This document shows positions 25,659 to 44,493 of a stretch of 52,971 bases of DNA, in pieces. The translations under genes and the position numbers were made by a program. The DNA is from Novosphingobium sp. Lineage in GTDB: Bacteria > Pseudomonadota > Alphaproteobacteria > Sphingomonadales > Sphingomonadaceae. Under the pieces are notes generated by a model that saw only the letters and a program-made list of their open reading frames with translations, searched no databases and was not told where the DNA came from. The stretch is from positions 1-52,971 of the forward strand of contig JAGREJ010000004.1 in NCBI GenBank assembly GCA_020446595.1, in the 5' to 3' direction. How positions within the stretch are numbered: position 1 is the stretch's first letter; each line of letters opens with the position of its first letter.

Positions 25659-25702
25659 CAGTCCTCACGATATGGTGTGTGTGGGTCGGTAAAGCGGCTG
25701 GC

Positions 25703-27049: not shown

Positions 27050-27174
27050 GAGTCTGCCCCCTCAAGAATCGCGTCAGAGCATACCGATATTGTGCCGATA
27101 CGAAAGGCCCGAATTGTGCCGGTTCCGTTCCTAACCATTTAGTATTGGCGAAGACTCGTGATAGTCACACGAGT

Positions 27175-28716
27175 ATGAACCAGCCGACGGATAACGACGC
27201 CAGCTTCGATCCGCGCAGCTGGTTGCGCCAGGACGGCGACGCGGCAGGCGGTTCAACCAGAATCGGAGAGCCGGGCAGTAGCCCGGATCGCGCGGATGCC
27301 AAAAGTTCGTCTGTCGCCGAACGAGACACGACCTCTTTCGATCCAAGGGCATGGAACGTCGCGGTAAGAGAGAAGGCCCGCCAATCAACGCAACCGATCG
27401 GTGGCGAGCAGCAAGCAAGCGGGTATCAGTCGAACGCCAGGCGAGCGCCGCGAGGCTATTTGATTGCCGGTCTTGCCAGCCTCACCGCAATGGTCGCCGG
27501 CATCGGTATTTATCTCTGGCAGGGATCCGGTACGAGCGCAGACACTGCGGCTCCAACTCCATCCGCCAAGCCAGTCGCTACCGCCCACGCCGTAAAGCCG
27601 GACCTCGATCTGGAACCGGGCGTGAGCAGACGCAGCCTCAAGCTGACTTCTTCCGCCCAGATCGCGCAGACGCTGAGCCAGGCAGGTGTCGAGGAGTCGC
27701 TTGCCTCTCAGGTCGCCGCGAAAATCGCGGCAGGAATTGCGCCAGGCGAAGAAATGGACCTCGAATTCGGCCTGAAGGTGGCAGGAAGCGACAAGCCGGC
27801 AGAGCTTGTTTTCGCTCAGGGCACCGTGGCAGATGGATCGGGCATGCGCATCTTGACCGGGAAAAGCGGACTTGCGATTGCCGCCATCAAACCCTCGCTG
27901 AAACGCAGGGTGACGTCAGTGCGCGGTGAACTGGATACCGAGAGTTTCTATACCTCGGCGGTTTCGGCAGGCGTGGTCGACAGCCTTATCAGCGATTTCG
28001 TCAACGCCTTTTCCTTCGATTTCAACCTCGCGCACGAGGTCAAACCGGGCGACGTGTTCGAAGTCGCCTATGCCGAACAGGTCAATTCGCGCGGCGAGCG
28101 GGTGGGCAAGCCCGAATTGCTCTATGTGTCTCTCACGACCGCCGAAAAGTCGAAGGATCTCTATCGCTTCAAGCCGGCCGGGGCCAAGGAATACGGCTGG
28201 TACGATGCCAACGGCACCAGCACCGTGCGGGCCTTCATGCGTACTCCAATCGACGGAGCGCGCATTACCTCGAATTTCGGCATGCGCTTTCACCCGGTGC
28301 TGAAATACAACCGGCTGCATGGCGGAACCGACTTTGCCGCGCCGGTCGGAACGCCGATCTACGCCGCTGCCGACGCCACCGTGATGTCCGCTTCGCCGAG
28401 TCGGTGCGCGGGCAACATGGCCATTCTGACCCACGACAACGGATACCAGACCCGCTATTTCCACCTCAGCAGATATGCGACGGGCCTTCATCCCGGCCAG
28501 AAGGTCCATCAGGGTGAGACTATCGGTTATGTCGGCAATACCGGCACCTGCACGACAGGCCCTCACCTGCATTACGAAGTGCATATCTCCGGCAAGAAGA
28601 TCGATCCGCTCAGCGTCGATACGGGAGAAGCGAAGACCCTTTCGCCAGCACTGGTCAAGAGCTTCTATGGCGTGCGCGACAGCATTGACGAAGCCCGGGC
28701 GAGCGCAGATCAGTGA
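27175..28716 (+). CDS. Membrane-anchored M23 metallo-endopeptidase (peptidoglycan hydrolase)
   Basis: HGGTDFAAP.GTP, YFHLS, TGPHLHYE; one TM helix after a disordered N-terminus. Confidence 0.9.
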   Translation: MNQPTDNDASFDPRSWLRQDGDAAGGSTRIGEPGSSPDRADAKSSSVAERDTTSFDPRAWNVAVREKARQSTQPIGGEQQASGYQSNARRAPRGYLIAGLASLTAMVAGIGIYLWQGSGTSADTAAPTPSAKPVATAHAVKPDLDLEPGVSRRSLKLTSSAQIAQTLSQAGVEESLASQVAAKIAAGIAPGEEMDLEFGLKVAGSDKPAELVFAQGTVADGSGMRILTGKSGLAIAAIKPSLKRRVTSVRGELDTESFYTSAVSAGVVDSLISDFVNAFSFDFNLAHEVKPGDVFEVAYAEQVNSRGERVGKPELLYVSLTTAEKSKDLYRFKPAGAKEYGWYDANGTSTVRAFMRTPIDGARITSNFGMRFHPVLKYNRLHGGTDFAAPVGTPIYAAADATVMSASPSRCAGNMAILTHDNGYQTRYFHLSRYATGLHPGQKVHQGETIGYVGNTGTCTTGPHLHYEVHISGKKIDPLSVDTGEAKTLSPALVKSFYGVRDSIDEARASADQ

Positions 28717-28723: not shown

Positions 28724-29587
28724 TCAGTCCCCCAGTTCGCGCAAGGGCTTTGCGGTTCGCTGTTTATAAGTGAACATCACCGCCAGAAGCAAACCGAAGG
28801 CTACCGTCATTGCCAGCGACTGGTTGAGCCCCTGCTCGCCCCCTCCGAACAGTGCGGAGCCTTTGAGATCGAGGTCGACCAGGCTGCCGAACATCGGCGA
28901 TCCGGGATTGGGCAGCAAACCCAGCAGCGATTCCTCGGTCGCGTTCCAGGTGAAATGGAATGCCGTCGGAGCGACAATCGCATTCGAGCGATAGGCCAGA
29001 ACACCGAAGACGAGGCCTCCGAGGAACAGGTTGAGAAGCGACACCGGTCCACTCGCCCCGGCGGGAAAATGCAGCAGGGCGAATATCAACGCCGTCACTG
29101 TCACTCCCGCCATTGCCCCCCATGCCGTGACCAGGACCGGCTGCATCCAGCCGCGAAATGCGACTTCCTCGGCCAGGCTCTGCAACAGAGTCAGCGCGAG
29201 CCCTATGCCGATAAGGTAGATGACTTGCGATCCATCTCCCAGCGCGATCGTATTGCCAAGAAAACTGACTGCCACCGCCACGATCACCGCGGCAATCGCC
29301 ATCACCATGCCGAGTGCAAGTGCCACCATTGGCCGATCGCCTGCCTGAAACGGACGCACTCCCGTCAATCTTCCCCCTGCCCATCCGCCGAGCAGCAGCA
29401 GGCCGAACATCATGGCCACGGATACCACGGTCAAGCCTTCGGGGTTTGTGGCGAAGGTGCTGGTCTTGGCGAGAGCGGAACTTACCACATCGGTCGCGAA
29501 GAATAGCAGCAGCACGAGCGTCGGTACGGCCAGAACAGTTGCCCAAACGGCAGAGCGCGATGGCGGCGCGGGCGATTTCGTGTTCAT
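28724..29587 (-). CDS. CPBP/CAAX (Abi) intramembrane metalloprotease
   Basis: EEVAFRG, FALLH, HFTWN motifs; multiple TM helices. Start is 29587 (ATG) or 29620 (TTG). Confidence 0.88.
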   Translation of the reverse strand: MNTKSPAPPSRSAVWATVLAVPTLVLLLFFATDVVSSALAKTSTFATNPEGLTVVSVAMMFGLLLLGGWAGGRLTGVRPFQAGDRPMVALALGMVMAIAAVIVAVAVSFLGNTIALGDGSQVIYLIGIGLALTLLQSLAEEVAFRGWMQPVLVTAWGAMAGVTVTALIFALLHFPAGASGPVSLLNLFLGGLVFGVLAYRSNAIVAPTAFHFTWNATEESLLGLLPNPGSPMFGSLVDLDLKGSALFGGGEQGLNQSLAMTVAFGLLLAVMFTYKQRTAKPLRELGD

Positions 29588-29606
29588 GCGACGATCCGGC
29601 CAGCTT

Positions 29607-30392
29607 TCACTGTGGCTCAAGCTTCGGCGGCCATTGCCCGGCGGCGATCCGGCGCTTGACCACCTTGGGCTCCGGCGGCGGCCAGGGAAAACCGACTTCG
29701 CGAAACTTTGCAGCTACCGCATCGCGCGCCTGGCCATCGGGATTCTCGGATTTCAGCCTGCTGCGATAGGCGCGATAAGCGATCGTGATGCCGGCAGTAT
29801 CGGTCGTATAGGGTGATGCACCGCGCCCGATGAGCTTTACGACCACCTGCCACTGGTCTGCTGCAGCGCCGGTAATGGACGGGCTGCGCTGAAGCTGGAC
29901 CTGACCCTTCTCGATGTCCGCACCAGCGTCGAGAAGGCGATCGGCATTGCCTGCCGCTCCTACCAGAGCGGCTTCGTTAAGCGGGGTTTCGAAATTGTAG
30001 GTGCGGTTCGGATCGGCTCCTGCCTTGAGCAGCATATTGACCAGTTCGCCGCTTTCGTCGAGCACGGCCGGATGCAGCGGGGCCGCGTTGTCCCCGCCAT
30101 CGGGATTTGCTCCGGCATCGAGCAGGGCCTTCACCATTTTCCTGTCATTAGCCATGACAGCAAGCAACAGGGCAGTCCGCCCCTGTTTGCCGGTCGTATC
30201 GAGTCCGTCAGGCAGGTTCCGCCCCAGCCGCAAGGCCTGATCCGTCTTGCCATCGATGACGCTGGCAATGAACTCGCGTTCCTCTTGCGTAGCGAAATTG
30301 TCGAGACGGGTATCGGCCATGTGCGCATCCTTGCCAGTCAGTCCGCATCCGGCAAGTGCAAATGCGATCTGCAAGGCGAGCCACCTCGCCAT
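29607..30392 (-). CDS. Ankyrin-repeat lipoprotein; probable immunity/accessory protein of the adjacent lipase (PhlB-like)
   Basis: Lipobox LAGC after MARWLALQIAFA; ankyrin repeats (GRTALLLAV..LLDAGANPD, PLHPAV..LLKAGADPN, TPLNEAA..LLDAGADI); starts 1 bp after the effector stop. Confidence 0.8.
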   Translation of the reverse strand: MARWLALQIAFALAGCGLTGKDAHMADTRLDNFATQEEREFIASVIDGKTDQALRLGRNLPDGLDTTGKQGRTALLLAVMANDRKMVKALLDAGANPDGGDNAAPLHPAVLDESGELVNMLLKAGADPNRTYNFETPLNEAALVGAAGNADRLLDAGADIEKGQVQLQRSPSITGAAADQWQVVVKLIGRGASPYTTDTAGITIAYRAYRSRLKSENPDGQARDAVAAKFREVGFPWPPPEPKVVKRRIAAGQWPPKLEPQ

Positions 30393-30393
30393 G

Positions 30394-31551
30394 TCAGATA
30401 CAGCCGGCCTCCCGCTGGGCGGCCTCCAGCGCATCCATTACCGAGGTCATGCGGTGCGGGTTCACGAGGTCCATCAGCGCATTAACCGGATTGATCCGGT
30501 CCCACATGCTCTGATTCGACGTATCGCGCTTCTCAGGCAATTCGCGGCGCGTTCCATATGCGGGCGGCAGCATCGGGCTCGACCCAATTTCGCGCCCGGC
30601 CGTGTAGCCGGCGAGAAACGAGCCAAGCGTCATATTGAGCGCGCCCACCCCGGTGACAATCGCCGCCAGCACGCCTTCGCGATTGTCCTGCGCCGCGCTC
30701 AGCGGATCGCGCGGGGTATAGTAGGCATCGACTGGCACCGGATCGTCGGAATATCCATCGACGGTGCTGTTGCTGAGACCGGCGGCGTTGTAGGTCGTGG
30801 CAGGACGACCCGTAGCGACCGCCGCCGCGGACGCCAGCCCGCCGCCAAGCGAGTGACCCGTAAAGGTCACGTTGTCAGCCGAATCCGAAACAGCGGTCGC
30901 GACAGCGATGGCGCGTTCGAAGTGGTCCGTTTCCATACCAAGGCCCTGAGTCACGTCGGCAACCACATCATCGGCAGACTGGGTGCCGCGAAAAGCGACA
31001 GTATATTCCGGGCCAGTCGGACCGTCAGTTACATAGACGCGTGCATGGAAATCGGAATCGGGAGGATCGAGCATCTCGGCCGAAACGCCCAGCGCCAGCA
31101 ATTCCTCATCGCTCGCGCGGCGGGTGTTGGCAGGCAATTCGTTGTCGCCACCATAGGTGTCGCCAGCCATCTGCGCCTTGGCAAAGGCATCGGCAAGTCG
31201 CACGCATTCGGGCGACTTGGTCGAGGTCAGGCCAAGTCCCGCCCCGAAACCCGCGCCGCCGCCGCCCGCCCCCTTCATGCCGATCAGCACAGTCGGCCAG
31301 CCCGTTATGACGGTTCCACCGGCGGCCGTGGCATCGGTGATCCGCGCGGCAGGCATCTTGCCGACAAGCACGGTCCATGCCCCGGTCACGATGGCATCGG
31401 GCTTGGCGGTGCAGGTGCAGATATCGGTGACGCGCGCCTGCGGCAGCTTGGCGGTAAGGACAGTGGGCCAGCCGGTAATTATCGGCAAGCCGGGCGGCGG
31501 GCAGGTCAGGCAGACATGCAGGTCAGTGATGCGTGCTGCCGGCAACCCCAC
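30394..31551 (-). CDS. PAAR-domain effector fused to a PhlA/YplA-like (DUF2974-type) phospholipase A1
   Basis: Three PAAR motifs (PAARITD, PQARVTD, PAARITD) with His/Cys ligands; Gly linker; lipase motifs VAFRGT, TGHSLGGGLA, TYNAAG. Confidence 0.88.
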   Translation of the reverse strand: MGLPAARITDLHVCLTCPPPGLPIITGWPTVLTAKLPQARVTDICTCTAKPDAIVTGAWTVLVGKMPAARITDATAAGGTVITGWPTVLIGMKGAGGGGAGFGAGLGLTSTKSPECVRLADAFAKAQMAGDTYGGDNELPANTRRASDEELLALGVSAEMLDPPDSDFHARVYVTDGPTGPEYTVAFRGTQSADDVVADVTQGLGMETDHFERAIAVATAVSDSADNVTFTGHSLGGGLASAAAVATGRPATTYNAAGLSNSTVDGYSDDPVPVDAYYTPRDPLSAAQDNREGVLAAIVTGVGALNMTLGSFLAGYTAGREIGSSPMLPPAYGTRRELPEKRDTSNQSMWDRINPVNALMDLVNPHRMTSVMDALEAAQREAGCI

Positions 31552-31663
31552 GATCAGTTCAGATCCGCTGTGATGCTGCAGACAAGAGCGGGTGAAACCG
31601 GCTTCGTTCTGCCTGATCTTGCCATGTCTCTACCCCCGCACGCCGGCAATCATCAACCAGCCT

Positions 31664-32401
31664 TCACTCCACGCGCTGGACCTCGATCCTGCGATTGCGT
31701 GGATCGTAAGGGGAAAGGCCTGGAAGGTTATCGAGGAAGCCACGACCTCGCACAAGAACTCGCCGCCAATCGACACCCACCGAATAGAGATAGCGTGCCG
31801 CAGTATCTGCTCGTTCGTACGAAAGCTTCTGATTTTCCTCAAGGATTCCTGACTTGTCAGTGTGTCCGACGATCATGATCCGCTTGGACTTATGCTCGTC
31901 CGAGTTAAGAACGACCGCAAGATTTCTTAGATTCTCCATCGACTGTGGCGAAAGCGCGGATGAACCCGCCTCGAACTGCAGGGGAACCTCACGAGCGGCC
32001 GGCTTTGCAAGGGAGGGAGACGGCGTTTTATTGACTGCCATCTGGCCCTGTTTGACCTTGGATTGTTTTGAAGGTTTGGCAAAAGATTTCAAAGGCTTCA
32101 CGTAGGAGGCCTTGTCATTCGAACTTGTCGACTTGGCATAGGAGGTCTTTCCAGCCGAGCTTGATGAAACTTCCGACGATTCGGATTTGGGCCGGGCGAA
32201 AGAGAAACCTCGCGTCTTGCTGACTTGCGGGCATGTGCCGTCGTCGAGCTTGATCTCGCAATCCTGTGCAGTCTCCCCATCGGCCAGCATGGCTTCTGCA
32301 TCGCTGGTCGAAAACACGCCCACGTCAGGTTCCGCCAACACAGCCGACGCAAGCGAGCAAGCCGACAGGGCGAGGGCCGCACTACAGAGCCGAATCTTCA
32401 T
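31664..32401 (-). CDS. Exported OmpA-domain (peptidoglycan-binding) protein
   Basis: Signal peptide (possible lipobox LSAC); C-terminal F..GS..L, VGHTD, NQKLSYERA, NRRIEV. Confidence 0.88.
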   Translation of the reverse strand: MKIRLCSAALALSACSLASAVLAEPDVGVFSTSDAEAMLADGETAQDCEIKLDDGTCPQVSKTRGFSFARPKSESSEVSSSSAGKTSYAKSTSSNDKASYVKPLKSFAKPSKQSKVKQGQMAVNKTPSPSLAKPAAREVPLQFEAGSSALSPQSMENLRNLAVVLNSDEHKSKRIMIVGHTDKSGILEENQKLSYERADTAARYLYSVGVDWRRVLVRGRGFLDNLPGLSPYDPRNRRIEVQRVE

Positions 32402-32484
32402 CTGAGCTCTCCAATTTTCCTGATCGAATGCGACGAGCTTACGCCCACGAGCGACGAAATTCAACGCGATGCCGAATTTTGCGG

Positions 32485-34404
32485 TCAGAACAAGCGAGTC
32501 GGGTGGATCGTTACCCGGAAACTGATGCCCTTGTCCTGCAGATGGCGTTTTCCGACGAACGATACGTCACGCAGGGCTTCACCATAGGTGATCCGGGCCG
32601 AAATGGCGTCTGATGGCCTCCAGGTGAGCGACGCTCCGACGGACGCCACCGATTTGGGCAGTGGATCGGGCGGCCTGGCATTGCCCGTCACAGCCCCATC
32701 GACGAACGCTGAAATGCGGAACGCGCCCCAGTCGAAATCCTTCACGTCCTTCACGTCTCCGGTAAGGGTGAAGTTGTAGCCAAGTTCGACGCTGGCAAAC
32801 AACGCACGATCTGCGAGCAGGAGATTTTCGCGATAGCCGCGAACGCTGTTCTGGCCGCCGATCGAGAAACGCTCACCGGAATACACTATCCCGCCCGAAT
32901 ACTGCCCCCCGACGCGCAAGTTCGCATCGAGCGCCTCGGTCAGGCGATAAGCGAAGCTGACCTGGCCGAGGATGGCGGTGAAGTTCTTCTTCACACGCTG
33001 CGCGCCGGGCGCGGTCGGATTGGTCCCGTCGAGGCCGATGGTCTCGGTCAGGGATACCGCAAGAACATGACGGGTCCCGCGCTCGACGAAATCCTGGGTC
33101 AGCCGCAAGGCCGTGTATTCGGCGCGACCGTCAACCGATCCTGGGCTGAAGGAAAATGGCTCGCCAAGCAGTTCGGTCTCGGTCTTGCGGTGAGCGACAA
33201 GCATGCCGACGGACAAGGAGCGCGCCGCTCTCCAACGCCCGTCGTCGGGAATGAGCGGCGTATCCAGCAAGGTATGTGAGACGCCGCCTTCGACAGACCA
33301 TTCCTTCGACTTGATATCGAGGGCTTCGAAGCGCCGCTCGACCACCGCGGCATCATTGATCGCGCCTCTCAGCAGCAGCCGGGTGCGCGGGCCGAACACC
33401 GGGCCGGCGTAGGAAAGGTAACCGTCGGTCAAACCTTCGGCATAACTCGCCTCGGCCGAAACCAGATCGCCTGCCACAAGCGTGTTGCGCAGCGATCCGC
33501 CAACCGCGGCCCGCAGGCTGCCTATCGCAGGGGACCGGTCGTTCGCAACCAGCGCATAGACATCGGCCTGACACTCCGGCGTGACAAGGATATCGAGTGC
33601 AGCCTCGCCGTGACGCGCGCCGGGCCTCAGGCTGGCATCAATATTCCGCACTGCCGGATCGGCGGCAAGGAGCCTGAAATCGCGCTCGAGCAGGTAGCTG
33701 TTGAACGGAACCGAGCGAGCCGAGGGCATCCGCTGGGCAACATATCTCTGACTCAATCCGCAGGACCTGTCGCCAGCGAAGCGCACGTTCAGTCCGCCAT
33801 CGGCACCGTCCGGGATTACCCGGCCATTGATGAGCCGCAGGTTCAGGCTGTCGGACCCAGGCTCTTGCGCCGCCACGAGAACACCGGAGTTGGCGTAGCC
33901 GTTTGCCAGAAAGGCGCGGTTCACAAGCTGGACCATGCCCAGGATGCGCGAGTAACTCGTCGGCTGGCCGACCAGCCCGTTGGCGCGAAACTGCTGCTCC
34001 ACCCATTGTCCGTCGAAACCCGATGGTCCCGGCGCGCTCAGCGAGAGACCTGTCGCGTCGTCCTTGCCGGGCAGCCAGCCGGATTGCGGCACGGCCGTAC
34101 CCTCTCCTTCAAGCAGGACATTCACGGTCTGGAACGTGACAGTCGCTGGCCGGGTCGGCGCAACATAGGGTTCCGGCTCCGCGACCGAGAACTCCGGCGC
34201 GGGCTTTGCGAATTCAGGCTGTGCCAATGGCTGAGCAAGAGGCCCGGTCCGCTCGCGCGGAGCGCCCGCGGCATCCTGCGCAAGCGCCGGCATGCTGGCA
34301 AGTGGAGTTACTGCCAGGGCCATTGAACAGGCCAGCGCCTGCCTCGCCAGACTGCCATTGGCCAGTTCGAATCTCACTGCGCTCTTGCCCCCTCTCACTG
34401 TCAC
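32485..34404 (-). CDS. Two-partner secretion transporter TpsB (ShlB/FhaC/HecB family)
   Basis: Signal peptide, POTRA-like GYANSG, VRGY motif (GGQNSVRGYREN), beta-barrel C-terminus ending in F. GTG start overlaps the TpsA stop. Confidence 0.9.
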   Translation of the reverse strand: MTVRGGKSAVRFELANGSLARQALACSMALAVTPLASMPALAQDAAGAPRERTGPLAQPLAQPEFAKPAPEFSVAEPEPYVAPTRPATVTFQTVNVLLEGEGTAVPQSGWLPGKDDATGLSLSAPGPSGFDGQWVEQQFRANGLVGQPTSYSRILGMVQLVNRAFLANGYANSGVLVAAQEPGSDSLNLRLINGRVIPDGADGGLNVRFAGDRSCGLSQRYVAQRMPSARSVPFNSYLLERDFRLLAADPAVRNIDASLRPGARHGEAALDILVTPECQADVYALVANDRSPAIGSLRAAVGGSLRNTLVAGDLVSAEASYAEGLTDGYLSYAGPVFGPRTRLLLRGAINDAAVVERRFEALDIKSKEWSVEGGVSHTLLDTPLIPDDGRWRAARSLSVGMLVAHRKTETELLGEPFSFSPGSVDGRAEYTALRLTQDFVERGTRHVLAVSLTETIGLDGTNPTAPGAQRVKKNFTAILGQVSFAYRLTEALDANLRVGGQYSGGIVYSGERFSIGGQNSVRGYRENLLLADRALFASVELGYNFTLTGDVKDVKDFDWGAFRISAFVDGAVTGNARPPDPLPKSVASVGASLTWRPSDAISARITYGEALRDVSFVGKRHLQDKGISFRVTIHPTRLF

Positions 34405-37400
34405 GAACAGGTTCTCCCCGTATCGCCAGAGGCGAGATCGGGGCTATCGGGCGCAAGTTCCGGTTTCGGCGCCAGCGAGTAGGGACCGATCTGATCGATC
34501 TGCAAGGTGTTGGACTTACCGCGCGCGCGCGCTGCCTGGCACCGGTTCGCAAGAACCTCTGCGGCGTCGAGGAACGAGACCTCTGCAACAGTCGTTCCGC
34601 TCGAAACGTCCTGCTCGGGGGCGACGGCGCTGTATCCTGCGACATTTACAACGTTGGTCGCATCGCTCGAATTGATGCGAATGGTGGATTCATCGATTAT
34701 GACGACAGCATTGCTGACATCGCCGCTCGCGCTGATCTCGCTGTTATCGGCGATGACCGCATAAGCGTTGAGGATGTTGATGATGCCGCCGCTGCCCTGC
34801 TGTCCGGAATCGGTGACGATCGATCCCGGCAGGGGATCGCCGCGCAGGAACACGATGCCGGTGTCGCTCTGGCCAAGATCGATCACGATTGCACCGGCAT
34901 CGGCGGACACCGAACTGGTATTGAGTACGCCCCCATTGCTCACGGTGAGCCTGCCAGTTTCGACCAGAATGTCACCGCCGAGATTGGTTCCGCCGGGTGC
35001 CGGATCGGCCAGCGTGTTGACGCTGAACACCTGTGACGGTGCACCGCCGGCACCGACGCCATCGACCAGAACTTCCCCTGCGGTAAGCGAAATGAAACCG
35101 GCAGGAAGTGCGTTTGCCGATTCCGCGGTGATATTGCCGCCGCGCAGGACATTTATCCTGTCAGCATTGAGCACGACATTGCCCGCCGCGCCGGTTCCTG
35201 TCGCGCTAGCCGAGACAGCACCGCCATCGACCACGTTGATTTCCTCCGAAGGCGTCGCAGGTTCGTCCACGTCGCCGCCGATGAAAACCAGTCCGGCATT
35301 GCCCGAATCAGTGGACGCGCTGGTGATGGCACCGCCGCTGCCGACCGTTACCTTGCGAGCGCCGATCAGCAATCCGGCGGAATCCCCGCTCGAATTGGTC
35401 GCTGCCGCAATTTCCGAATCGGTCACGACCAGTTCGTCGGCCACGAAGGATATGACGCCGCCCGGCCCCGAACCGCTGGTATTGGCAAATACGGATGTGC
35501 CACCCGTCAACGTCGCCTTTTGGCCGATCTCGAAGAACAGCCCGCCGCCGCCCCCGCTTCCGAACGAGTCGGAAGATACGGTCGACCCATCTATCGAAAG
35601 GTTGCCCGGCGCGGACAGCAGAACCGTACCGGCATCGCCGAAGAACGGACTTTCCACCACGGCCAGACTTTCGGACGAGATATAGCCACCCGTCAACGAG
35701 ATGTCGGCACCCGCGCCCAGAGTGATGTCGCCACCTCGTCCCTGTCCATAGGTATCGGCATAGATCTCGGTATTTGTGGCTGAGATCGACTGTTCCGCGG
35801 AAATGTTGATGAAACCCCCATTGCCGGAACCGCCCACCGTATCGGCGGTAATTACACTGTCGGCGATTATCAGCCCGCCACCAGATAGGATGCGGGCGAT
35901 GCCGCCGTCTCCGCTGCCGAAGGTATCGGTCGAGAGCGTCGAGGAGACGAAGCTGAGGTCGCCTGCGGAGATGAGTGCGGCAATGCCGCTGTCTCCGCTC
36001 GTTCCGGTAGCATTGGTGGCAGCGGAAAACTGGGATGTCGAAACGTCGAGCGCACCGAGCGAGTTGACGATTACGTTGCCGCCGTTGCCAATGCTGTTGG
36101 CTGTCGAGAACAGGTCCGAATCGGCGATGGACAGCTCGGACCCCGCTTCAAGATAGACGTTTCCGCCAGTCCCGGTCCCGTCGGTCCGGGCGACCAGCGC
36201 GGAATTGCTGACGTTCAGCCCCGTGCCGGAGACGAGCTGTATATCGGCCCCAAGCCCCCCATTATTCGATTGCAGGCTCGTCGCCGAGGCCAGTTCGGTA
36301 TCATCGACGCTCACCGAACCGATAGAGTTGATGTTGATGAGGCCACCGGCGGCGGTGCCCGCAGTCGTGGCAGAAAATGTCGAGCCGGTTATGGAAATCG
36401 GTCCGAAAGCGGAGAGCCGGATCGCACCGGCGTCACCGCCTCCGGTTTCGAGCAGCGAAGAGGAAATGATGGCGATCCCGGCAATGGACAGGGAATCATT
36501 CGATCCCAGCGTGATCGTTCCACCGGCGCCTGCGCCATTTGTCAGGCTGGCGATCGTGCTGTCGGTTATGCCGAGCTGCGAGGTCGAACCGATGGCAATG
36601 CCCGATGCTGGTGCATCAATTTCCGTAAGCGACGCGATATTCGTCAGGTCGATCGCGACAATGCCGGCTACAAAGCGGGAAAGCGGCAGGAAGTCTCCGC
36701 TCGCCGGGGCAAGTGCCGCGCGTAGAAGAAAATCGCTCTGGCTGATCGTCAGAGTGCCGTCGATTGTCGCCGGCAAGTCACCGAACAATGGCACTTCACC
36801 AGCCGTACCGGAAGCGATAAGATCGAGCACGCTGGTCTGGATGCCTGACAATTCGACGGTAAGGTCAGGCGCCACGAATGTTGCGCCGGTCCACCCGACT
36901 GCCTCGGGCAGCGAGGAACCGCTGAACAGCGGCTCGCCAACGCCCGAAATCGTCAGGCCCGCCTCTCCCCCGACAAATCCGAAGGCAACCGGATTGGATA
37001 TCGACAGAGTCGAGCCTTCCGGCGTGCGCGCGGAAAAGACGTCACCGTTGGCGAAGCGAACCTCGCTGCCGGTCGAGAAATAGGCGGCGCCGGGAACATT
37101 GAGGTTGGCGCCCTGCCCGAACAACACCCCGTTCGGATTGATGAACCAGAAATCCGCGCCCGGCAGAGCGGTCGTATCGATGGTGCCGTTGATGTGGGAC
37201 GACAGGTTGCCGGTGACACGATTGACGATGTTCGAGATCGTCCCCGATCCGGGCGCCTGCCAGAAAGCCGTATCCCCGGCAGCCAGATCGAACTGCTCGA
37301 AACTATAGAACTGGTTGGCCGCGACCACCGTGCCGCCGCCGATGAAAATCGTTCCCTGATTGCCGTCGATCACCGTGTTCTGGCCAGTGGATCCTCTGGT

Positions 37401-37511
37401 ATCGGCAATGATCGTGGTTTGCACGGTCTGCGCATGGGCCGCCCCGGACAAGGCCGTGGCTGAAAGCAGGGCCAGGACCGCCAGGCGCTTTAGCGAGTGA
37501 TGTGGCCTCAT
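34401..37511 (-). CDS. TpsA exoprotein (filamentous haemagglutinin-like secretion domain plus beta-helix repeats), ~1036 aa
   Basis: Signal peptide ending AHA-Q; NQFYSFEQF, NRVTG, FINPNGVLFG; many G.GG.I repeats. ATG 37511 overlaps the CHAT stop (ATGA). Confidence 0.9.
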   Translation of the reverse strand: MRPHHSLKRLAVLALLSATALSGAAHAQTVQTTIIADTRGSTGQNTVIDGNQGTIFIGGGTVVAANQFYSFEQFDLAAGDTAFWQAPGSGTISNIVNRVTGNLSSHINGTIDTTALPGADFWFINPNGVLFGQGANLNVPGAAYFSTGSEVRFANGDVFSARTPEGSTLSISNPVAFGFVGGEAGLTISGVGEPLFSGSSLPEAVGWTGATFVAPDLTVELSGIQTSVLDLIASGTAGEVPLFGDLPATIDGTLTISQSDFLLRAALAPASGDFLPLSRFVAGIVAIDLTNIASLTEIDAPASGIAIGSTSQLGITDSTIASLTNGAGAGGTITLGSNDSLSIAGIAIISSSLLETGGGDAGAIRLSAFGPISITGSTFSATTAGTAAGGLININSIGSVSVDDTELASATSLQSNNGGLGADIQLVSGTGLNVSNSALVARTDGTGTGGNVYLEAGSELSIADSDLFSTANSIGNGGNVIVNSLGALDVSTSQFSAATNATGTSGDSGIAALISAGDLSFVSSTLSTDTFGSGDGGIARILSGGGLIIADSVITADTVGGSGNGGFINISAEQSISATNTEIYADTYGQGRGGDITLGAGADISLTGGYISSESLAVVESPFFGDAGTVLLSAPGNLSIDGSTVSSDSFGSGGGGGLFFEIGQKATLTGGTSVFANTSGSGPGGVISFVADELVVTDSEIAAATNSSGDSAGLLIGARKVTVGSGGAITSASTDSGNAGLVFIGGDVDEPATPSEEINVVDGGAVSASATGTGAAGNVVLNADRINVLRGGNITAESANALPAGFISLTAGEVLVDGVGAGGAPSQVFSVNTLADPAPGGTNLGGDILVETGRLTVSNGGVLNTSSVSADAGAIVIDLGQSDTGIVFLRGDPLPGSIVTDSGQQGSGGIINILNAYAVIADNSEISASGDVSNAVVIIDESTIRINSSDATNVVNVAGYSAVAPEQDVSSGTTVAEVSFLDAAEVLANRCQAARARGKSNTLQIDQIGPYSLAPKPELAPDSPDLASGDTGRTCS

Positions 37512-39868
37512 CTCCAGCCTCCCAGCATGGTGAACGCTGACCATATCCACGGATCGGACTGATTGTTGTTGCGCGCGATCAGCGCGAGCTGCGCGTCGCG
37601 CAAGGCTTCGGCTCTCGATTTGCCCTCGCGCAGCCCGCGATAGAAAACGCTCATGAGTTCGGCGGTGCCAATGTCGTCCACTTGCCACAGCGAGGCGAGC
37701 GCGCTGACAGCGCCTGCCTGAATGGCGGCGCCAGCGAGTCCCATCGCCGCCTCGTCATCGCCCACCGCGGTTTCGCAGGCGCTGAGAACCAGCAGCGCAA
37801 GATCGCCGCCCCGGGTTCTGCGCGCCGAAATCAGGTCGCGCAGTTCGGATAGGCGCACGAGCTGGTCCGCAGCCACGATAAACGACCTGTTCGACCCGCC
37901 ATTGAAAGCCGCATGGGTGGCCAGGTGGAGAATATCGACCGGCTCACGAACCAGCACGCGTTCGAGATCGGCCTTCGAGAAATCAACCATGACGTCGCTG
38001 TTGTCACCCTGCTCCGCCGCTACGACTGCGCGCGCCTCCGGAATGGTGAAATCAAGCTTGGGAAATACGCCTCCCGGCACAACGACCTCGCGCCCAAGGG
38101 CCGCCGCAACGACATTTGGCTCGTTCTGAGCTGCGCGATCTCCCGGCTGGAGAAACGACAGGGCAGGCGCTACCGTCATGCGCGTCCGTTCGACGAGATA
38201 CTTGCCGGTCCCGTCGACGAGGGCTGCAAAGGGTACGGCGCGAAGGCTGCTGTCGGGCACGATTATCAGCGTCGAATCGCCGCCCAGCTGGTTTTCGATC
38301 GGTGCGATCAGCAATTCGTAAAGCCTTGCCGCCGCGCCCTGCCAAGCTGAGCCGTGACCCCTCGAGCCGAGCGAGACAAGCCCCGCCACCACGCTATCTA
38401 CTTCTGACCGGCTGACCGGGCGCGGAACGAGGCGATGGAAGCGCGGCGCGGAATCCCCGGGGGCGGCCGCCGCATAGAGCAGCTCCATTCTGTCATCCAG
38501 CACAACCGGATAGAGCACCACTTCGCGAGCCAGCAGGTCAGATGGCGTGAACGGCGTCGCCGAGGGCGCGCAATCGCTGCCGAACAGATCCTGAATCTCC
38601 GCCTGACGGTAGCTCTCGATGATGGTCTGGGCTCTGGCGATACGATCGGGATCGTCGCCCGAGACGCTGTTCAGTTCGGCATCTACGGCGGCTTCGAATA
38701 CTTCCCGCATGCGCAGGGCGAAGTTGGATTCGTTGGTAACCGGATCGACGGCTGGCAGGAACGGCCGGATTGTTTCAAGCGCCCGGTAGGCCGATGCGAC
38801 ATGTTCGTAACGCTTGTCCGGTTCGGCCTGTGCCAGCAGCAGCAACCAGTCCGGCATGCGGGTCGGCAGTTCCCGTTGCGATTCGAACTGGATTGCCCGC
38901 TGCAGATGGCCGTTTGCCGGGCCGCCCGTAGCCTGCGCAAGCCGACCTTCCAGTGCAGCCGTAAAGGCGGCGATCGCCGGGTCGTCGCTGGCTGCCGTGC
39001 GCATCTGGCCGATTGCCAGGTCGAGCCGAGCATACGAATTCGAACCTGCATCAAGCGCCGTTTCCACGAGTCTTCCGATCATCGTAGCGCGATCGACACC
39101 GTTCGGTATGGATTCAGCCGTGCCGATCGATTGCAGCGCAAGACCGCTGGCAAACGGTCTTGATTGCGCGGTGAATGGCAGATCGGGATTGGCAATGGCG
39201 AGCCTCGCCAGACGAAGCGACGCCATCGACGAGAGCCTGTAGTCTTTCGCCGCCAGCGCCCTGCCCGCCGAACATTCGAGCGCCAATGCGGAGTAGGCTC
39301 GTCCGCGCATGCCGGAATTGCCTGGCGAACTCAGGGTCGCGCAGGCAGCGTCGGCTCCGCGACCGGCCACGCTCGCGTCCTCGGAGACATCGCCCGCCAT
39401 TCCGCGAGACCCGATGCCGCTGCCATCGCTGGCATGGACCAGCCCCAGTCTGTAAGCCGCAAGGGCGCTGACGTCGCGAAGCCCTGCGCGCTCTGCACTC
39501 ACCAGCGACGCGACGAGATAGGCGTGCGCCTGATACTGGCTGCCATCGCTTCGCGTTCTGGCTGCTTCGCCGGCGGCGGAACAGTATTGGGCGAGTGCCG
39601 CCTCGGAAGGTGGCGAAGATGCGCTGGCACCTTCCACCGTGACGACGGATTGAAGTGACGCGCTGCCGCCTCCGCGCGACATCGCGCGCTCGATCGCCGC
39701 TGCCTGGGTCTGCAAGGTGCTATCGTCCGGATAGGTGCCTGCCGAAAACTGCGACGTCGCGCACAGCTCATCGGCGGTCAGGGCCCGGGCAGGCGTTGAT
39801 GCAAGCAGGCCGAATGCTGCGGCGGCAACGCCCGCGATGCAAACCCTCCCGCCAAAGGATGGTTTCAT
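37508..39868 (-). CDS. Exported CHAT-domain (caspase/HetF-like) cysteine protease with helical N-terminal region
   Basis: Catalytic motifs HLATHA and LVLSACETA, plus SLWQVDD and P..WSAF. Signal peptide MKPSFGGRVC...PARA; AGGGGG RBS before ATG 39868. Confidence 0.9.
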   Translation of the reverse strand: MKPSFGGRVCIAGVAAAAFGLLASTPARALTADELCATSQFSAGTYPDDSTLQTQAAAIERAMSRGGGSASLQSVVTVEGASASSPPSEAALAQYCSAAGEAARTRSDGSQYQAHAYLVASLVSAERAGLRDVSALAAYRLGLVHASDGSGIGSRGMAGDVSEDASVAGRGADAACATLSSPGNSGMRGRAYSALALECSAGRALAAKDYRLSSMASLRLARLAIANPDLPFTAQSRPFASGLALQSIGTAESIPNGVDRATMIGRLVETALDAGSNSYARLDLAIGQMRTAASDDPAIAAFTAALEGRLAQATGGPANGHLQRAIQFESQRELPTRMPDWLLLLAQAEPDKRYEHVASAYRALETIRPFLPAVDPVTNESNFALRMREVFEAAVDAELNSVSGDDPDRIARAQTIIESYRQAEIQDLFGSDCAPSATPFTPSDLLAREVVLYPVVLDDRMELLYAAAAPGDSAPRFHRLVPRPVSRSEVDSVVAGLVSLGSRGHGSAWQGAAARLYELLIAPIENQLGGDSTLIIVPDSSLRAVPFAALVDGTGKYLVERTRMTVAPALSFLQPGDRAAQNEPNVVAAALGREVVVPGGVFPKLDFTIPEARAVVAAEQGDNSDVMVDFSKADLERVLVREPVDILHLATHAAFNGGSNRSFIVAADQLVRLSELRDLISARRTRGGDLALLVLSACETAVGDDEAAMGLAGAAIQAGAVSALASLWQVDDIGTAELMSVFYRGLREGKSRAEALRDAQLALIARNNNQSDPWIWSAFTMLGGWR

Positions 39869-40207
39869 TTGCAACCCCCTGAGTCGTGGCAAAGCCAATC
39901 CAGCCGCGCATATTGCCTGCACCGGTGCCCAAAGACCCGCACTGGCCGCAACGGCGGCGCGATAAGGCAGGTTGATCGACCAGTCATCACGAGTCAACAA
40001 ATCAATCGCTTGAGTGCACTATTGCGCAAATCAACGAAGCTGACGGCTCTCCATTCTAGCCAGACAAAGTCCCAAATCTTGAATGTCGAAACCGCAGCCT
40101 ATGGCTCTATTTTTTTCTAAGGGTAACCGTAAAACTGTATAAGAACCTCTCAAGGCCCGCAGCAGGTCTACATCCGCTGGTAAGAGACGCGGCTGGCGCC
40201 GGTGTTT

Positions 40208-40594
40208 CTATTTCATATTCTGCATTATCTGGTTGCTGACGCTCGACATCTGCTTGGTCATGTTGCTCAAGGCACTGAACATTTGCTGCTGGCTGGAAAA
40301 CAATGACTGTATCGCCTGGAGCGCCGTGCTGTTCTTCACGTTCTGATTCGAGATGTTGCCCAGACTGACCCACAGATCGTTCTTCTGTGTTTCCAGATTG
40401 AACAGGACGCTTTTTTCCGCCTTGGCGATCGCCTTGTGCAGCGCGGCGATGTAGGCTGCCTTCTGCAGCGCCGGTCCGAGCTTGGCCAGCAATTGCGGGT
40501 CGATGCCGGCCGCCGGGTTGAACACCGACGTTTTGGACTTGCCGTCGACAAGCTGGCCCAAGAGCGATCCAAGGTTACCGATGTTTCCAAACAT
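40208..40594 (-). CDS. Hypothetical 128-aa Q/N/S-rich helical protein with T3SS-needle (SctF)-like C-terminus
   Basis: GGAG RBS before ATG 40594; ends in LQAIQSLFSSQQQMFSALSNMTKQMSSVSNQIMQNMK. Confidence 0.7.
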   Translation of the reverse strand: MFGNIGNLGSLLGQLVDGKSKTSVFNPAAGIDPQLLAKLGPALQKAAYIAALHKAIAKAEKSVLFNLETQKNDLWVSLGNISNQNVKNSTALQAIQSLFSSQQQMFSALSNMTKQMSSVSNQIMQNMK

Positions 40595-40776
40595 GATGAC
40601 ATTCTCCAGGTTTGACCAGTTCGATTGGCTGAGGTGAAGAATAACCATCGTACAAGCGAGGGATCAAGCGATAAGGCGGAATTACTGTCCAGATCGGCAC
40701 CAGAGAAAATTGCTACGCGTTGGAAACTCATCGGGGCGATGCAAGGTGTGCCACCTGCACTTGCCCTGATCGCCGC

Positions 40777-41280
40777 CTAATTGGCCGCGATGCTGAAACC
40801 TAGCTCCTTCCAGATGTGGGCCTGGTTCTTGCGCAGTTGCGGGACGAGCATGCCCACGACCGGCCCCAGGCTCGTGGCAATACCCTGGAGAACCGGGCCG
40901 AGTTTGCTGTATGGCGCGGGAAAATTTGACGCGATGTTGCCGAATTCGTTTATCAATGTGGCCATTGCCGGAATCGCGGCCTCGCGGTTGAAGCGGATTG
41001 CATGGGGATCGCTGAGCACCTTGTGCGCGGCTTTGATGCGCTTGTAGGCATCGACGGCACCATAGAGACTGTGCCCCTTGCCGATCGCCTCCGAAACGCC
41101 CTTCAACGCCTTTGACGCGCTTTCCATCGTGCTGATGGCGACACTGTCATTGCCGCTGTTGACCTGATTCCAGACCCATTTGGCCTGCCCGATCTTCTTG
41201 ACGGTATCGTCACATGCAGACTTAAGGGCCTTGGAATCCTCAATCGCATATTTTCCGGTAAAATATCCGTAAATATCCAT
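40777..41280 (-). CDS. Hypothetical 167-aa helical protein
   Basis: GGGAG RBS before ATG 41280; protein-like composition; no motif recognised. Confidence 0.7.
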   Translation of the reverse strand: MDIYGYFTGKYAIEDSKALKSACDDTVKKIGQAKWVWNQVNSGNDSVAISTMESASKALKGVSEAIGKGHSLYGAVDAYKRIKAAHKVLSDPHAIRFNREAAIPAMATLINEFGNIASNFPAPYSKLGPVLQGIATSLGPVVGMLVPQLRKNQAHIWKELGFSIAAN

Positions 41281-41628
41281 CTGGTATCTCCCTGAAAACA
41301 AAACGAGCGGGATATCGACGCGACACTGCATTGACGACCAAGCCGCGCGGGTCTGTCGGCATATCCAGTTTTTGCGGGCCAGTTTTTGCAGGCTGTGTCA
41401 GCGTATCATCCTTGTCTCCCGAATTCGACCGATTGTTTGCCAAATCGCCTCGCTCTACTGGCCGATGCGGCGGGGCGGCTTGTCGGGTATTGCGCGAAGG
41501 TGTAGACTTGCGATGCCCGGAAGGTATCGAACATTTGTCCTGGCCATCAAGGTCCGGACTGTCCGTTGCGACGTGCTGCGCTCGGCATTCGACGCTGCGG
41601 CGCAGCCGCTCGCAGGGAAGGAGGAGGT

Positions 41629-43146
41629 TTGCAAACGACCGGATCTTTTGCCCTCCGGAACGCCAAGGCGCGGCACGCGCTGTTCATGGCGATAGGCGTC
41701 GCCAGTGCATGCCTTGTTGGCCCCGTGGCAGGGCCAGCAGGAGCAAGGCCTTCCGACAGCGGGCAAGGCGCCAGCGATCTGCTCGTGGTGGACTGCCTGC
41801 TGCCTCCGACGATCCAGCGCCTTGGCAACAGCGTCACCTATCTGCGCGCGCGCAAGGCGGTAAAGACTTCCGCTGCAGAATGCCGCAAGCGTGGCGGCGA
41901 ATATTCGGAAGCCGGCAAGGAAACCTACGCCGCACTCACCAAAATCTGGCTTCCTCTCGCCAATGCCGGAGATGCCGAAGCGCAGACCAATCTTGGCGAG
42001 ATATTCGAACAGGGAAAGGGCGGCCCTCCCCAGCCCGACATGGCAGCGCAGTGGTATCGCCGCGCGGCAGAAGCGGGATATGCGCGCGCGCAGGTGAACC
42101 TTGGCTCCCTTTATGAGCGCGGCCTTGGTGTGCCCAAGAATCAATCGACCGCTATGCAATGGTACCGCCGCGCTTCGGGCCTGGAAAACGAGAGCCTTGC
42201 CTTCCAGGCCGGTAGCCAGAACACCGAAGTTCAGCGCCTCCAGCGCGAGCGCGACGATCTGGCCCGCCAGCTCGAACAGGAGCGCAGCAAGCGCAAGGCT
42301 CTTGAACAGGGCGCTGCATCGGATGTGGCGTCAGCGCCTGACGATGCGGCGCTGAATATTCAGCGCAAGCCGCAAAAGGTTGCGCGCAGTCAGCGCAAGA
42401 CGTCGAGCCAGACCCGCTATCACGCTCTGATAATCGGCAACAATGACTTCGAGCACATTCCGAGCCTGACGACCGCCGTCAACGATGCGCGGACGATCGA
42501 GGCGATCCTGCGCAAGCAATACGGCTACAAGACAACCCTGCTCATCGACGGCAGCCGCTATCAATTGCTTTCGGCGCTGAATACCTTGCGGGAGGAACTG
42601 ACCGAGCGGGACAATCTCCTCATATTCTATGCCGGGCATGGCGCGCTCGATGAAGTGAATGACCGGGGGTACTGGCTCCCGGTCGATGCCGAAGCGCATT
42701 CGAATGCGAACTGGATTCCGTCGTGGCAGATAACCGATCTGATGAATGCGATGAACGCGGGCCAGATCATGCTGATCGCCGATTCCTGCTATGCGGGAAC
42801 CCTGACCCGCGCATCGATACCCACCGCACAATCTGGCATGAACGAGGCCGACAGGGCGCGCTGGATCGAAGTCATGACAAGGCGGCGCACCCGCGTCGTG
42901 CTCACCTCTGGCGGGGTCAAACCCGTTCTAGACACGGGCGGAGGACAGCATTCGGTTTTCGCTGCCGCGCTTATCAGAGCGCTTGAAAGCAACCATCAGG
43001 CTCTCGAAGGGCAGAAGCTGGCAAACACGATAACTGGACAGGTCAAGGCAGCCGCACTGCGCCAGAAATTCGATCAGGTTCCGATGTACGCTCCGATTCG
43101 CTATGCCGGACATGAAGCGGGGGATTATTTCTTCATCCCCAGGTGA
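41629..43146 (+). CDS. Exported Sel1-repeat + coiled-coil + caspase (peptidase C14) protein
   Basis: GGAGG RBS, TTG start and signal peptide; Sel1 repeats (AQTNLGEIFEQG, AQVNLGSLYERG); C14 motifs ALIIGNN, FYAGHG, ADSCYAG. Confidence 0.88.
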   Translation: MQTTGSFALRNAKARHALFMAIGVASACLVGPVAGPAGARPSDSGQGASDLLVVDCLLPPTIQRLGNSVTYLRARKAVKTSAAECRKRGGEYSEAGKETYAALTKIWLPLANAGDAEAQTNLGEIFEQGKGGPPQPDMAAQWYRRAAEAGYARAQVNLGSLYERGLGVPKNQSTAMQWYRRASGLENESLAFQAGSQNTEVQRLQRERDDLARQLEQERSKRKALEQGAASDVASAPDDAALNIQRKPQKVARSQRKTSSQTRYHALIIGNNDFEHIPSLTTAVNDARTIEAILRKQYGYKTTLLIDGSRYQLLSALNTLREELTERDNLLIFYAGHGALDEVNDRGYWLPVDAEAHSNANWIPSWQITDLMNAMNAGQIMLIADSCYAGTLTRASIPTAQSGMNEADRARWIEVMTRRRTRVVLTSGGVKPVLDTGGGQHSVFAAALIRALESNHQALEGQKLANTITGQVKAAALRQKFDQVPMYAPIRYAGHEAGDYFFIPR

Positions 43147-43179
43147 AATGCATAATTCGATTAAACAGGGAGTCCGCCG

Positions 43180-44493
43180 TTGAACAAGTCTGCATTCCCG
43201 CCCGCGATGGCGGTCGCCGTTGGCATGCTGGTCGCATTCGGTGTCCAGGCACCCGAAGCTCACGCCCAGTCTGCCGGCAATGCCTCGTACCAGGACTTCT
43301 TTGCAACCTCGGTCTGTGGTCTTGACAGTACCGGCGAGGGTTCGCCGCCAAGTCAGGCCATTGCCGCCCGCTGTCGCGACACGATCGACAACAACGGTCA
43401 GGCAGCCAACATTTCCGGCGACAGCGAATCCTCGCTCAATCCCAATCAGGTCGCCATTGCCGCAAGCAGCGCCCTGGCACGGGCAAGGTCGATGGCGGAA
43501 CAGGCCGAAGATCGCATGCGCGACCAGCGCGAAAACGATGAGGAAGAGCAGGAAGGTGGCGATGAAGGGTATGTCGCCTCGTTCGGCCCCTGGAGCCTCT
43601 TCGCCAACCTCGAGACCGAATGGTTCGACCAGACGCGCCTGCCTTATGCGAACGAGCGCGGGTTCGATGGCGACCGGATCAGGGGAACGCTGGGAGCCGA
43701 TTACCGGCTCAATCCCCGGTCGCATATCGGCCTGATGCTGCATTACGAGCACTATTCGGCAGACTTCGACAAGGAGCTGGCAGGCACGGGCTTTGCGCCG
43801 ACCGGCCCGGCAGGTTCGGTCCGATCGAACACCTGGGCCGGTACCGTGTTCGCTTCCTTCTCGCTGTCCGATGAAGCATGGCTCGATGCCTCCGCGGGCT
43901 ATGGCAGCAGCGACAACGTATTCCGCCGCAACGCGATCTTCCAGCCGGGCACGCGCGCCTTTTCCCGCCCGGTGGAGACACGCGGCGAGGCTGACGGGGA
44001 AATGATCTTCGCATCCATCGGCGCGGGGTACGATTTCCTCACCGGCGCGCTTTCGATCGGCCCCTACATCCGGGGCCGCTATGTCCGCTCGAAAATCGAT
44101 GGCTATGTCGAGGAAGACCTGAGCAGCAGCGCGCTGCAACTCGCCGTAGGGCGGCAAAAGGCAACATCGCTGACTTCGGTGCTCGGCACGCAGCTTTCCT
44201 ATCCAATCAGCACGAGCTGGGGCGTGATAATGCCGCAGGCGAGGTTCGAATACGAACACGAATTCGAGGATGATCCGCGCACCACGCTGACCAGCTTCGT
44301 CAACGATCCTCGCGGAACGGCGTTTTTCGGCGTGACGACCGATGCACCCGATCGCAATTACTTCAACGCGGCGGCGGGACTGGTCATGATCCTCCCGAAC
44401 GGGATTATGCCTTACATCGATTACGAAGCACTGCTTGGATATCGCAACTTCGACCGGCACCGGCTGACCGTGGGACTGCGCCTCGAATTTTGA
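43180..44493 (+). CDS. Autotransporter beta-domain protein with very short passenger
   Basis: Signal peptide (AHA-Q), short passenger with one Cys pair, barrel strands (LGADYR, YEHEF, terminal GLRLEF); GGGAG RBS. Confidence 0.85.
   Translation: MNKSAFPPAMAVAVGMLVAFGVQAPEAHAQSAGNASYQDFFATSVCGLDSTGEGSPPSQAIAARCRDTIDNNGQAANISGDSESSLNPNQVAIAASSALARARSMAEQAEDRMRDQRENDEEEQEGGDEGYVASFGPWSLFANLETEWFDQTRLPYANERGFDGDRIRGTLGADYRLNPRSHIGLMLHYEHYSADFDKELAGTGFAPTGPAGSVRSNTWAGTVFASFSLSDEAWLDASAGYGSSDNVFRRNAIFQPGTRAFSRPVETRGEADGEMIFASIGAGYDFLTGALSIGPYIRGRYVRSKIDGYVEEDLSSSALQLAVGRQKATSLTSVLGTQLSYPISTSWGVIMPQARFEYEHEFEDDPRTTLTSFVNDPRGTAFFGVTTDAPDRNYFNAAAGLVMILPNGIMPYIDYEALLGYRNFDRHRLTVGLRLEF

Follow-up and report, generated by a model that had tools for sequence, protein, structure and literature searches.

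How does a type VI secretion system (T6SS) of the PpkA type sense or hold its target cell when the TagQRST proteins are missing? This question is raised by a stretch of 52,971 nucleotides from Novosphingobium sp. (Sphingomonadales; Sphingomonadaceae; GenBank assembly GCA_020446595.1, contig JAGREJ010000004.1, positions 1 to 52,971), referred to here as the window. A T6SS cluster lies there near a gene for a caspase-fold protease of the CHAT family and near tpsA and tpsB, which encode the filament and the exporter of a two-partner secretion (TPS) system. A first-pass annotation of this DNA had joined these genes with ompA, a Sel1-repeat C14 caspase gene and an autotransporter barrel gene into a single module. 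Comparison with other genomes separated it into three units: CHAT-tpsA-tpsB, ompA-PAAR-CAAX-M23 at the edge of the T6SS, and Sel1-C14 with the barrel on the opposite strand. We tentatively propose, at somewhat less than even confidence, that CHAT binds or cuts the Cys-hooked tail of TpsA, by which the filament would become a contact adhesin under protease control for the use of the T6SS.

CHAT, tpsA and tpsB form a conserved cassette

The CHAT gene and tpsA are joined by an ATGA overlap, and tpsA and tpsB by a GTGA overlap. The gap from tpsB to ompA is 83 bp and that from ompA to the PAAR gene is 112 bp, as the first-pass annotation had described. The dyad of CHAT, H652 and C698, was invariant in all of the 56 homologues aligned from 74 matches, and several N-terminal Cys residues were invariant as well. 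The AlphaFold model (predicted local distance difference test, 86) has a helical-repeat N-terminal region, and its fold matched those of Csx29, DdvA and separase. The export of CHAT, C14 and TpsA was judged by a hydropathy proxy. A hydrophobic N-terminal stretch was present in 51 of 56 CHAT homologues and 39 of 40 C14 homologues, as compared with 1 of 17 cytoplasmic controls from the window. The His/Cys dyad of the C14 protein was also invariant in the 40 homologues aligned (from 120 listed matches; the family total is 3613 matches). Two caspase-fold proteases with intact dyads and export-type N-termini are thus present, as had been claimed.

TpsA has a signal-type N-terminus and a TPS domain, and the TpsB gene is adjacent to it, as in two-partner secretion (type Vb). 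The tails of the TpsA proteins contained two Cys residues in 16 of 16 cases, together with the invariant residues D-A..L...C...R and G-P. This Cys pair is a candidate disulfide anchor of the HMW1/HxuA/CdrA subtype. When the window was compared with N. aquimarinum (G436), the ratio of nonsynonymous to synonymous substitutions (dN/dS) was about 0.25 for CHAT (dN 0.29, dS 1.16), and the values for TpsB were dN 0.28 and dS 1.36. These values show purifying selection on both proteins.

Homologues of this CHAT, designated type A, occupy 10 loci in 7 of the 400 genomes drawn from the order, and were further found in G017 and in N. aquimarinum. The order search scored two candidates per genome, and some type-A loci may be missed. 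At the ten loci of the order draw, tpsA adjoined the CHAT gene in all cases and tpsB in nine, and both genes were also adjacent in G017 and N. aquimarinum. In G429, tpsA looked fragmented and tpsB gave no match. CHAT-tpsA-tpsB is a conserved three-gene cassette. Its flanks are unrelated housekeeping genes, e.g., mutS, guaA and a chloride channel gene, with no receptor in common, and the TPS pair is therefore the sole constant partner of type-A CHAT.

No match to a core T6SS gene was found at 80 metagenome CHAT loci, many of which are short and most of which carry more distant CHATs. Some related CHAT loci have compositions of their own. TPR-OmpA, a Sel1-tipped kinase, CHAT and TPS genes stand in one run in L043 (6148-16280) and L084 (539-5798), and a PP2C-FHA-OmpA-CHAT-tpsB series lies beside multihaem cytochromes in L088 (5875-12950). 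T6SS core genes gave no match in the examined stretches of the three loci.

A second CHAT-TPS clade occupies the same slot in T6SS loci

TssK was found in 27 of 400 genomes of the family (32 loci, four of them on contigs shorter than 8 kb). In 14 of these 27 genomes, a CHAT gene was located on the same strand as tssK and 2–19 kb upstream of it (14 loci). These CHATs, designated type B, have the gene order tpsB-tpsA-CHAT. Both TPS genes were found in four loci by Pfam and in seven more by tblastn; G625 has tpsB and a long open reading frame (ORF), G102 has the TpsA tail alone, and in G628 the locus ends at the contig edge. All ten type-B CHATs examined contain the dyad, and their N-termini are of the export or lipoprotein type. 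In G594 (L148:4362-7540), the type-B CHAT gene seems to be divided between two ORFs. In five type-B loci, tpsB is preceded by a gene for an OmpA-domain protein. The tails of type-B TpsA proteins have a different conserved motif, and no homology was found between type-A and type-B tails.

The location of type B was confirmed with a held-out set, namely, G026, G020, G032 and S. parapaucimobilis YK209. All four of these proteins, which lie outside the alignment, are encoded 2–4 kb upstream of tssK. In 125 family genomes, the top-tier type-B matches were the five alignment members alone, and most of the others belonged to a paralogous tier of about 30% identity (B'). Ten B' loci were compared, and five of them encode an adenylate cyclase with a CHASE2 domain together with a small protein that is exported. 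In the CHAT tree (FastTree; one intended type-B row is missing from it), type B is the sister of B', and type A forms a separate clade far away. The genes adjoin a T6SS in 11 of 11 type-B rows and in 1 of 10 type-A rows.

The slot itself is conserved. A CAAX gene is located at the same T6SS edge in G436, G473, G488, G476, G177, G026, G020, G032 and S. parapaucimobilis. The M23 gene, which separates the minus-strand operon of the window from tssK, is kept between the CAAX gene and tssK in relatives. In the TssK tree, the window and G436 are sisters nested among six type-B-bearing loci (support 91/89). The simplest history would be that the type-B cassette was ancestral in the slot and was then lost, and that type A now stands in its place. 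The neighbourhood search that the first-pass annotation had proposed thus gave a divided answer: a link with the T6SS was observed for type B, including the held-out set, and failed for type A, as described below.

T6SS loci without an adjacent CHAT gene

The T6SS of N. aquimarinum is orthologous to that of the window (TssK 89%), and the order ompA-PAAR-CAAX-M23-tssK is conserved, with housekeeping genes beyond ompA. Neither an adjacent CHAT-TPS cassette nor ppkA was found in this cluster, and two copies of ppkA are located on other contigs. Since the order is kept without CHAT, the genes ompA, PAAR, CAAX and M23 are part of the edge of the T6SS. In this organism all of the parts are present yet scattered.

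A neighbouring TssK clade contains seven loci without an adjacent CHAT gene, and six of them have a PpkA-like kinase. Four of these six genomes, G412, G502, G619 and G474, gave no CHAT match anywhere, although their PpkA contains a related domain. We considered the idea that the CHAT-less loci have no PpkA, or have TagRST instead, and rejected it, because most of them keep a relocated PpkA. The neighbours of the relocated gene are a DAHL histidine kinase, MauG and a response regulator, or dehydrogenases. In G412, G502 and G619 (L130:15436-19531, L133 and L136), the DAHL histidine kinase, the MauG-type cytochrome and the response regulator are encoded between ppkA and tssK. Copies of ppkA away from the T6SS core were seen at L199:10429-15005 (G436:C45), L216/L217 (G465, G510), L201 (G479) and L204 (G072). 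The relocated gene is often accompanied by pppA, CAAX, M23, ompA or fha, and this set looks like a movable accessory kit.

A proposed protease-controlled contact adhesin and its alternatives

An action of CHAT on the TpsA tail is suggested by two results, that is, the TPS pair is the sole constant partner of type-A CHAT, and each CHAT clade comes with its own tail motif. The proposal starts from genes that are coupled, co-inherited and kept by purifying selection. By analogy with two-partner secretion, TpsB would export TpsA, and the two C-terminal Cys residues would hold the tail in the periplasm. Passages of two papers (PMC5422565, PMC11898600) describe TpsA proteins of the HMW1/HxuA type as locked in the pore by a C-terminal disulfide loop, and the release of CdrA when LapG cuts its periplasmic tail. 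According to passages of a third paper (PMC11506125), proteases of the TPR-CHAT type are inactive at rest, and the dyad is brought into line by a partner. The tail motif may be the site at which the cognate CHAT docks or cuts, and the protease would set whether the filament is kept or shed. In related T6SS loci, as the comparison above indicates, the same slot is occupied by another CHAT-TPS clade. A filament that holds target cells would benefit the T6SS, and the type-A cassette would have replaced the ancestral one.

Several results weigh against this proposal. TssC was absent from 8 of the 9 other type-A genomes, and the ninth, N. aquimarinum, has the orthologous cassette and its T6SS on separate contigs, so that adjacency to the T6SS is a single case for type A. 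The PpkA periplasmic domain, with the query used, was found in none of the eight T6SS-less genomes. The module had been predicted to be tied to the T6SS, and independent occurrence, the outcome that the first-pass annotation itself had named as speaking against it, is what type A displays. The type-B loci are kin, and their counts therefore represent long retention through rearrangement, not independent events. In a draw from the phylum, TssK was present in 96 of 400 genomes, of which 88 were searched for CHAT (the other eight were 6 genomes whose TssK match was weak and 2 from the family, which the family search had included). CHAT was detected in 14 of the 88, and within 20 kb upstream of tssK in 2; both of the latter belong to one genus, with a TPS pair present and two-component genes in between. 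From the scarcity of CHATs near tssK outside the family, and from the PpkA loci without CHAT, the association is lineage-restricted and is not required for such a T6SS. In addition, related CHAT clades adjoin membrane receptors, i.e., the CHASE2 cyclase of the B' loci and a Hanks kinase with OmpA in L043 and L084, which favours signalling over plain release. The independence of type A may also mean that the cassette is an adhesin-protease unit inserted by chance beside the T6SS, with no T6SS function in the source genome. The many unrelated housekeeping sites of type A, the sister T6SS of N. aquimarinum without an adjacent cassette, and the relaxase and integrase genes 1.5–6 kb to the right of the barrel gene fit with such an insertion. 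However, the window cassette lies in the same CAAX/M23/tssK slot and on the same strand as type B in the six sister loci and the four held-out loci, and it continues into ompA after just 83 bp. We consider a chance insertion rather improbable.

A different possibility, which is the idea of the first-pass annotation limited to CHAT-TPS, is that the filament senses contact and turns on the TPR-CHAT protease, which activates PpkA via its DUF4384-like periplasmic domain in place of TagQRST. Of the 14 loci of the family where a type-B CHAT adjoins the T6SS, 13 have ppkA in the cluster; the exception is G072, with ppkA at a distance of about 59 kb from tssK. Within a distant T6SS clade, G072 and G388 have both the type-B CHAT-TPS and the PpkA domain, and neither was found in G520, G667 and G615. 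The sister clade B' is wired to the CHASE2 cyclase, DdvA is a precedent for periplasmic signalling by a TPR-CHAT protein, and the inputs of PpkA vary by lineage (TagQRST, RtkS, TssW). On the other hand, the related PpkA domain of G412, G502, G619 and G474 occurs in genomes without any CHAT match, type A occurs without the PpkA domain in all eight T6SS-less genomes, and a profile comparison of the PpkA domain with the small protein of the CHASE2 loci gave no match (probability 0.2%). Moreover, PpkA is reportedly constitutively active where TagQRST is missing, as stated in passages of PMC12607579. Signalling to PpkA by this route is, in our judgement, unlikely. Much less probable still is the idea of a single cascade feeding the T6SS, made up of the two proteases, CHAT and Sel1-C14, and the short barrel. 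An intact dyad and an N-terminus of the export type are present in each protease, and the two units diverge around a gap of about 350 bp, by which shared regulation is possible. However, no C14 gene was found near tssK in 28 T6SS genomes, and no Sel1-C14 orthologue was found in the five type-A genomes tested. The three orthologue-bearing genomes among 380 of the phylum had no CHAT or TPS match within 20 kb, and the pair is 2.3 Mb (G893) and 0.78 Mb (G874) away from TssK. These comparisons largely refute the cascade, which remains unsupported, and the predicted location of Sel1-C14-barrel next to a T6SS was not seen in the other genomes compared, nor was any linkage to CHAT. A broader view, which we regard as doubtful, would be that an anchored filament on the surface, with a separase-like periplasmic protease, is an interchangeable touch sensor, recruited by T6SSs from at least two, perhaps three, CHAT clades and triggering firing via PpkA, with the sister clade driving the CHASE2 cyclase. 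The protease-controlled contact adhesin is the reading that we favour.

Comparison with known systems

LapG has a fold other than that of CHAT. CdrA/CdrB with LapG of P. aeruginosa is similar to the window cassette in that a TPS filament with a C-terminal Cys hook is combined with a periplasmic cysteine protease as the possible releaser. The window protease differs in being a TPR-CHAT protein encoded in the same operon; LapG is regulated by cyclic di-GMP (c-di-GMP) (passages of PMC11898600 and PMC5422565). For the window cassette, cleavage is a prediction. In the Pfam scan, which covered 43 ORFs of the window with the rest of the genome not searched for this family, no LapG-family protease under a c-di-GMP receptor was found. 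DdvA of Myxococcus xanthus, as described in passages of PMC11506125, is likewise a periplasmic TPR-CHAT protein with a His-Cys dyad, and the structural match to it had an E value of 8e-11. DdvA is a membrane anti-sigma dimer, whereas the window CHAT has a signal-type N-terminus and a TPS pair as its partner. An anti-sigma domain was not present in the window CHAT, and no sigma factor family, the extracytoplasmic function (ECF) type included, was detected among the ORFs scanned. The first-pass annotation had suggested periplasmic protease signalling of an undescribed kind; a model of periplasmic TPR-CHAT signalling, that of DdvA, is already published.

Craspase and the CHAT-caspase cascades of type III CRISPR systems are cytoplasmic and are triggered by nucleic acids. 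Craspase (Csx29) and these cascades (bioRxiv 10.1101/2023.06.23.546230) share the TPR-CHAT fold and the dyad with the window protein (matches in the PDB), which differs from them in its export-type N-terminus. No cas or SAVED family was found among the scanned ORFs.

The envelope inputs TagQRST, RtkS and TssW, which act on the PpkA-PppA-Fha-TagF pathway, are lineage-specific (passages of PMC13584744, PMC6653060 and PMC12607579). The genes ppkA, pppA, fha and tagF are all in the window T6SS cluster (Pfam), and the difference is the absence of any TagQRST family from the scanned ORFs, in agreement with the first-pass annotation. Genes for FGE-sulfatase proteins are present on two other contigs of the source genome, and are not near tssK in four relatives. 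The passages of a 2026 review of T6SS accessory factors contain none on CHAT, caspase or two-partner secretion. Bacterial metacaspases with a C14 domain, Sel1 repeats and N-terminal signal-like helices have been catalogued (PMC3501461), and they resemble the C14 protein of the window; its pairing with a short-passenger barrel does not appear in the passages of that paper. XAC4114 of X. citri was called a type Vb transporter in a passage of PMC7777525.

A full-text search, with most subscription papers outside its scope, found no literature joining CHAT with TPS or T6SS. New here are the division of the supposed module into three units and the clade analysis, by which one slot is seen to be occupied by two cassettes that are unrelated.

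Organization of the window

The source genome is about 64% complete, and the nearest named relatives are Novosphingobium. On the contig, the T6SS extends from tssH (1489) to tssK (27049). The features are listed in Table 1.

Table 1. Genes and gene clusters of the window, with their positions and the matches that identify them
Feature	Position	Strand	Identified by
T6SS core cluster with tagF, pppA, fha, tagJ, vgrG, ppkA	1489..27049	.	Pfam scan
PpkA kinase, one transmembrane helix and DUF4384-like periplasmic domain	16941..19244	-	Pfam Pkinase; transmembrane helix near residue 486
M23 peptidase, convergent with CAAX gene	27145..28716	+	Pfam Peptidase_M23
CPBP/CAAX intramembrane protease	28724..29620	-	Pfam Rce1-like
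Ankyrin-repeat lipoprotein, LAGC lipobox	29607..30392	-	Pfam Ank; start and lipobox
PAAR fused to GHSLGG lipase-like domain	30394..31551	-	Pfam PAAR_motif and weak Lipase_3 match
Exported OmpA-domain (peptidoglycan-binding) protein	31664..32401	-	Pfam OmpA
TpsB exporter, POTRA and ShlB/Omp85 barrel	32485..34404	-	Pfam ShlB, POTRA_2, Omp85
TpsA filament, 1036 aa, TPS domain, C-terminal two-Cys tail	34401..37511	-	Pfam TPS; TIGR01901
Exported TPR-CHAT (caspase-fold) protease, 786 aa, type A	37508..39868	-	Pfam PF12770, E 4e-59
Helical small protein, 128 aa	40208..40594	-	No Pfam or NCBIfam match
167-aa protein	40777..41280	-	5 homologues, 59-80% identity, one from Novosphingobium sp. PC22D
Exported Sel1-repeat / coiled-coil / C14 caspase-family protein, 504 aa	41632..43146	+	Pfam C14 (PF00656, E 4e-20) and Sel1
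Autotransporter barrel, short passenger	43180..44493	+	Pfam Autotransporter
TrwC relaxase and integrase, right of barrel (1.5-6 kb)	45168-50168		Pfam

The minus-strand run reads, from right to left, two small ORFs, CHAT, tpsA, tpsB, ompA, PAAR-lipase, ankyrin lipoprotein and CAAX. The PAAR-lipase protein is likely an antibacterial effector, and the ankyrin lipoprotein is, from its position, likely the immunity protein. The periplasmic domain of PpkA resembled DUF4384 clusters at 0.94 in the ESM Atlas, which is a lead only. The relaxase and integrase region is likely the edge of a mobile element. A scan for promoters and terminators gave counts at chance level (3 observed and 4.6 expected; 14 observed and 16.3 expected).

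The Sel1-C14 gene, which has a TTG start behind AGGAGG, and the barrel gene are encoded on the other strand; the two small ORFs lie before them, and the distance to the start of CHAT is 1.76 kb. About 105 residues separate the signal peptide from the barrel, and the earlier description of a barrel with almost no passenger was accurate. The barrel gene adjoins the Sel1-C14 orthologue in G893 and G874. At four orthologue loci, no kinase, CHAT or TPS match was found within 20 kb, and Sel1-C14 gave no match in plasmids. Sel1-C14 and the barrel are a genuine pair and a separate, divergently transcribed unit. The two small genes between the units (40208-41280) are lower in GC and had no counterpart among 218 loci compared. 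The Atlas matches of the 128-aa protein are hypothetical proteins, with a weak likeness (0.90) to a type III secretion system needle protein.

TssJ was found in none of five genomes (the source genome and four relatives), and the window T6SS is of a TssJ-less kind with a long-form TssL. Between the window and the sister T6SS, the identity of Hcp (8490-8993) is just 29%, as compared with 83% for TssC, and so low a value suggests an Hcp swap. The tssM gene is in two frames (21067-24009 and 20501-21166), with the break at a slippery-type heptamer, C-CCT-TTT (21133-21139, minus strand). The same codon is broken in N. aquimarinum, and tssM was intact in the five other relatives checked; a split tssM as a family-wide trait was thus rejected, as it is present just in the window and N. 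aquimarinum. Beyond the break, the frame is open for a further 211 codons, for which dN/dS is about 0.23, and the predicted RNA fold after the slip site was not unusual (z -0.85 and +0.60). The site is a candidate for programmed frameshifting. Slippage on a poly-A run is described for tssM of C. rodentium in the abstract of PMC4256274. If tssM is not recoded, the window T6SS may be impaired.

Implications

For exported bacterial caspase-fold proteases, almost no substrates are known, and the TpsA tail is a concrete candidate. With two unrelated CHAT-TPS clades in one T6SS slot, and with a cultured relative, N. aquimarinum, that has the parts scattered, nature has provided an experiment on how PpkA-type T6SSs without TagQRST may sense or hold their targets.

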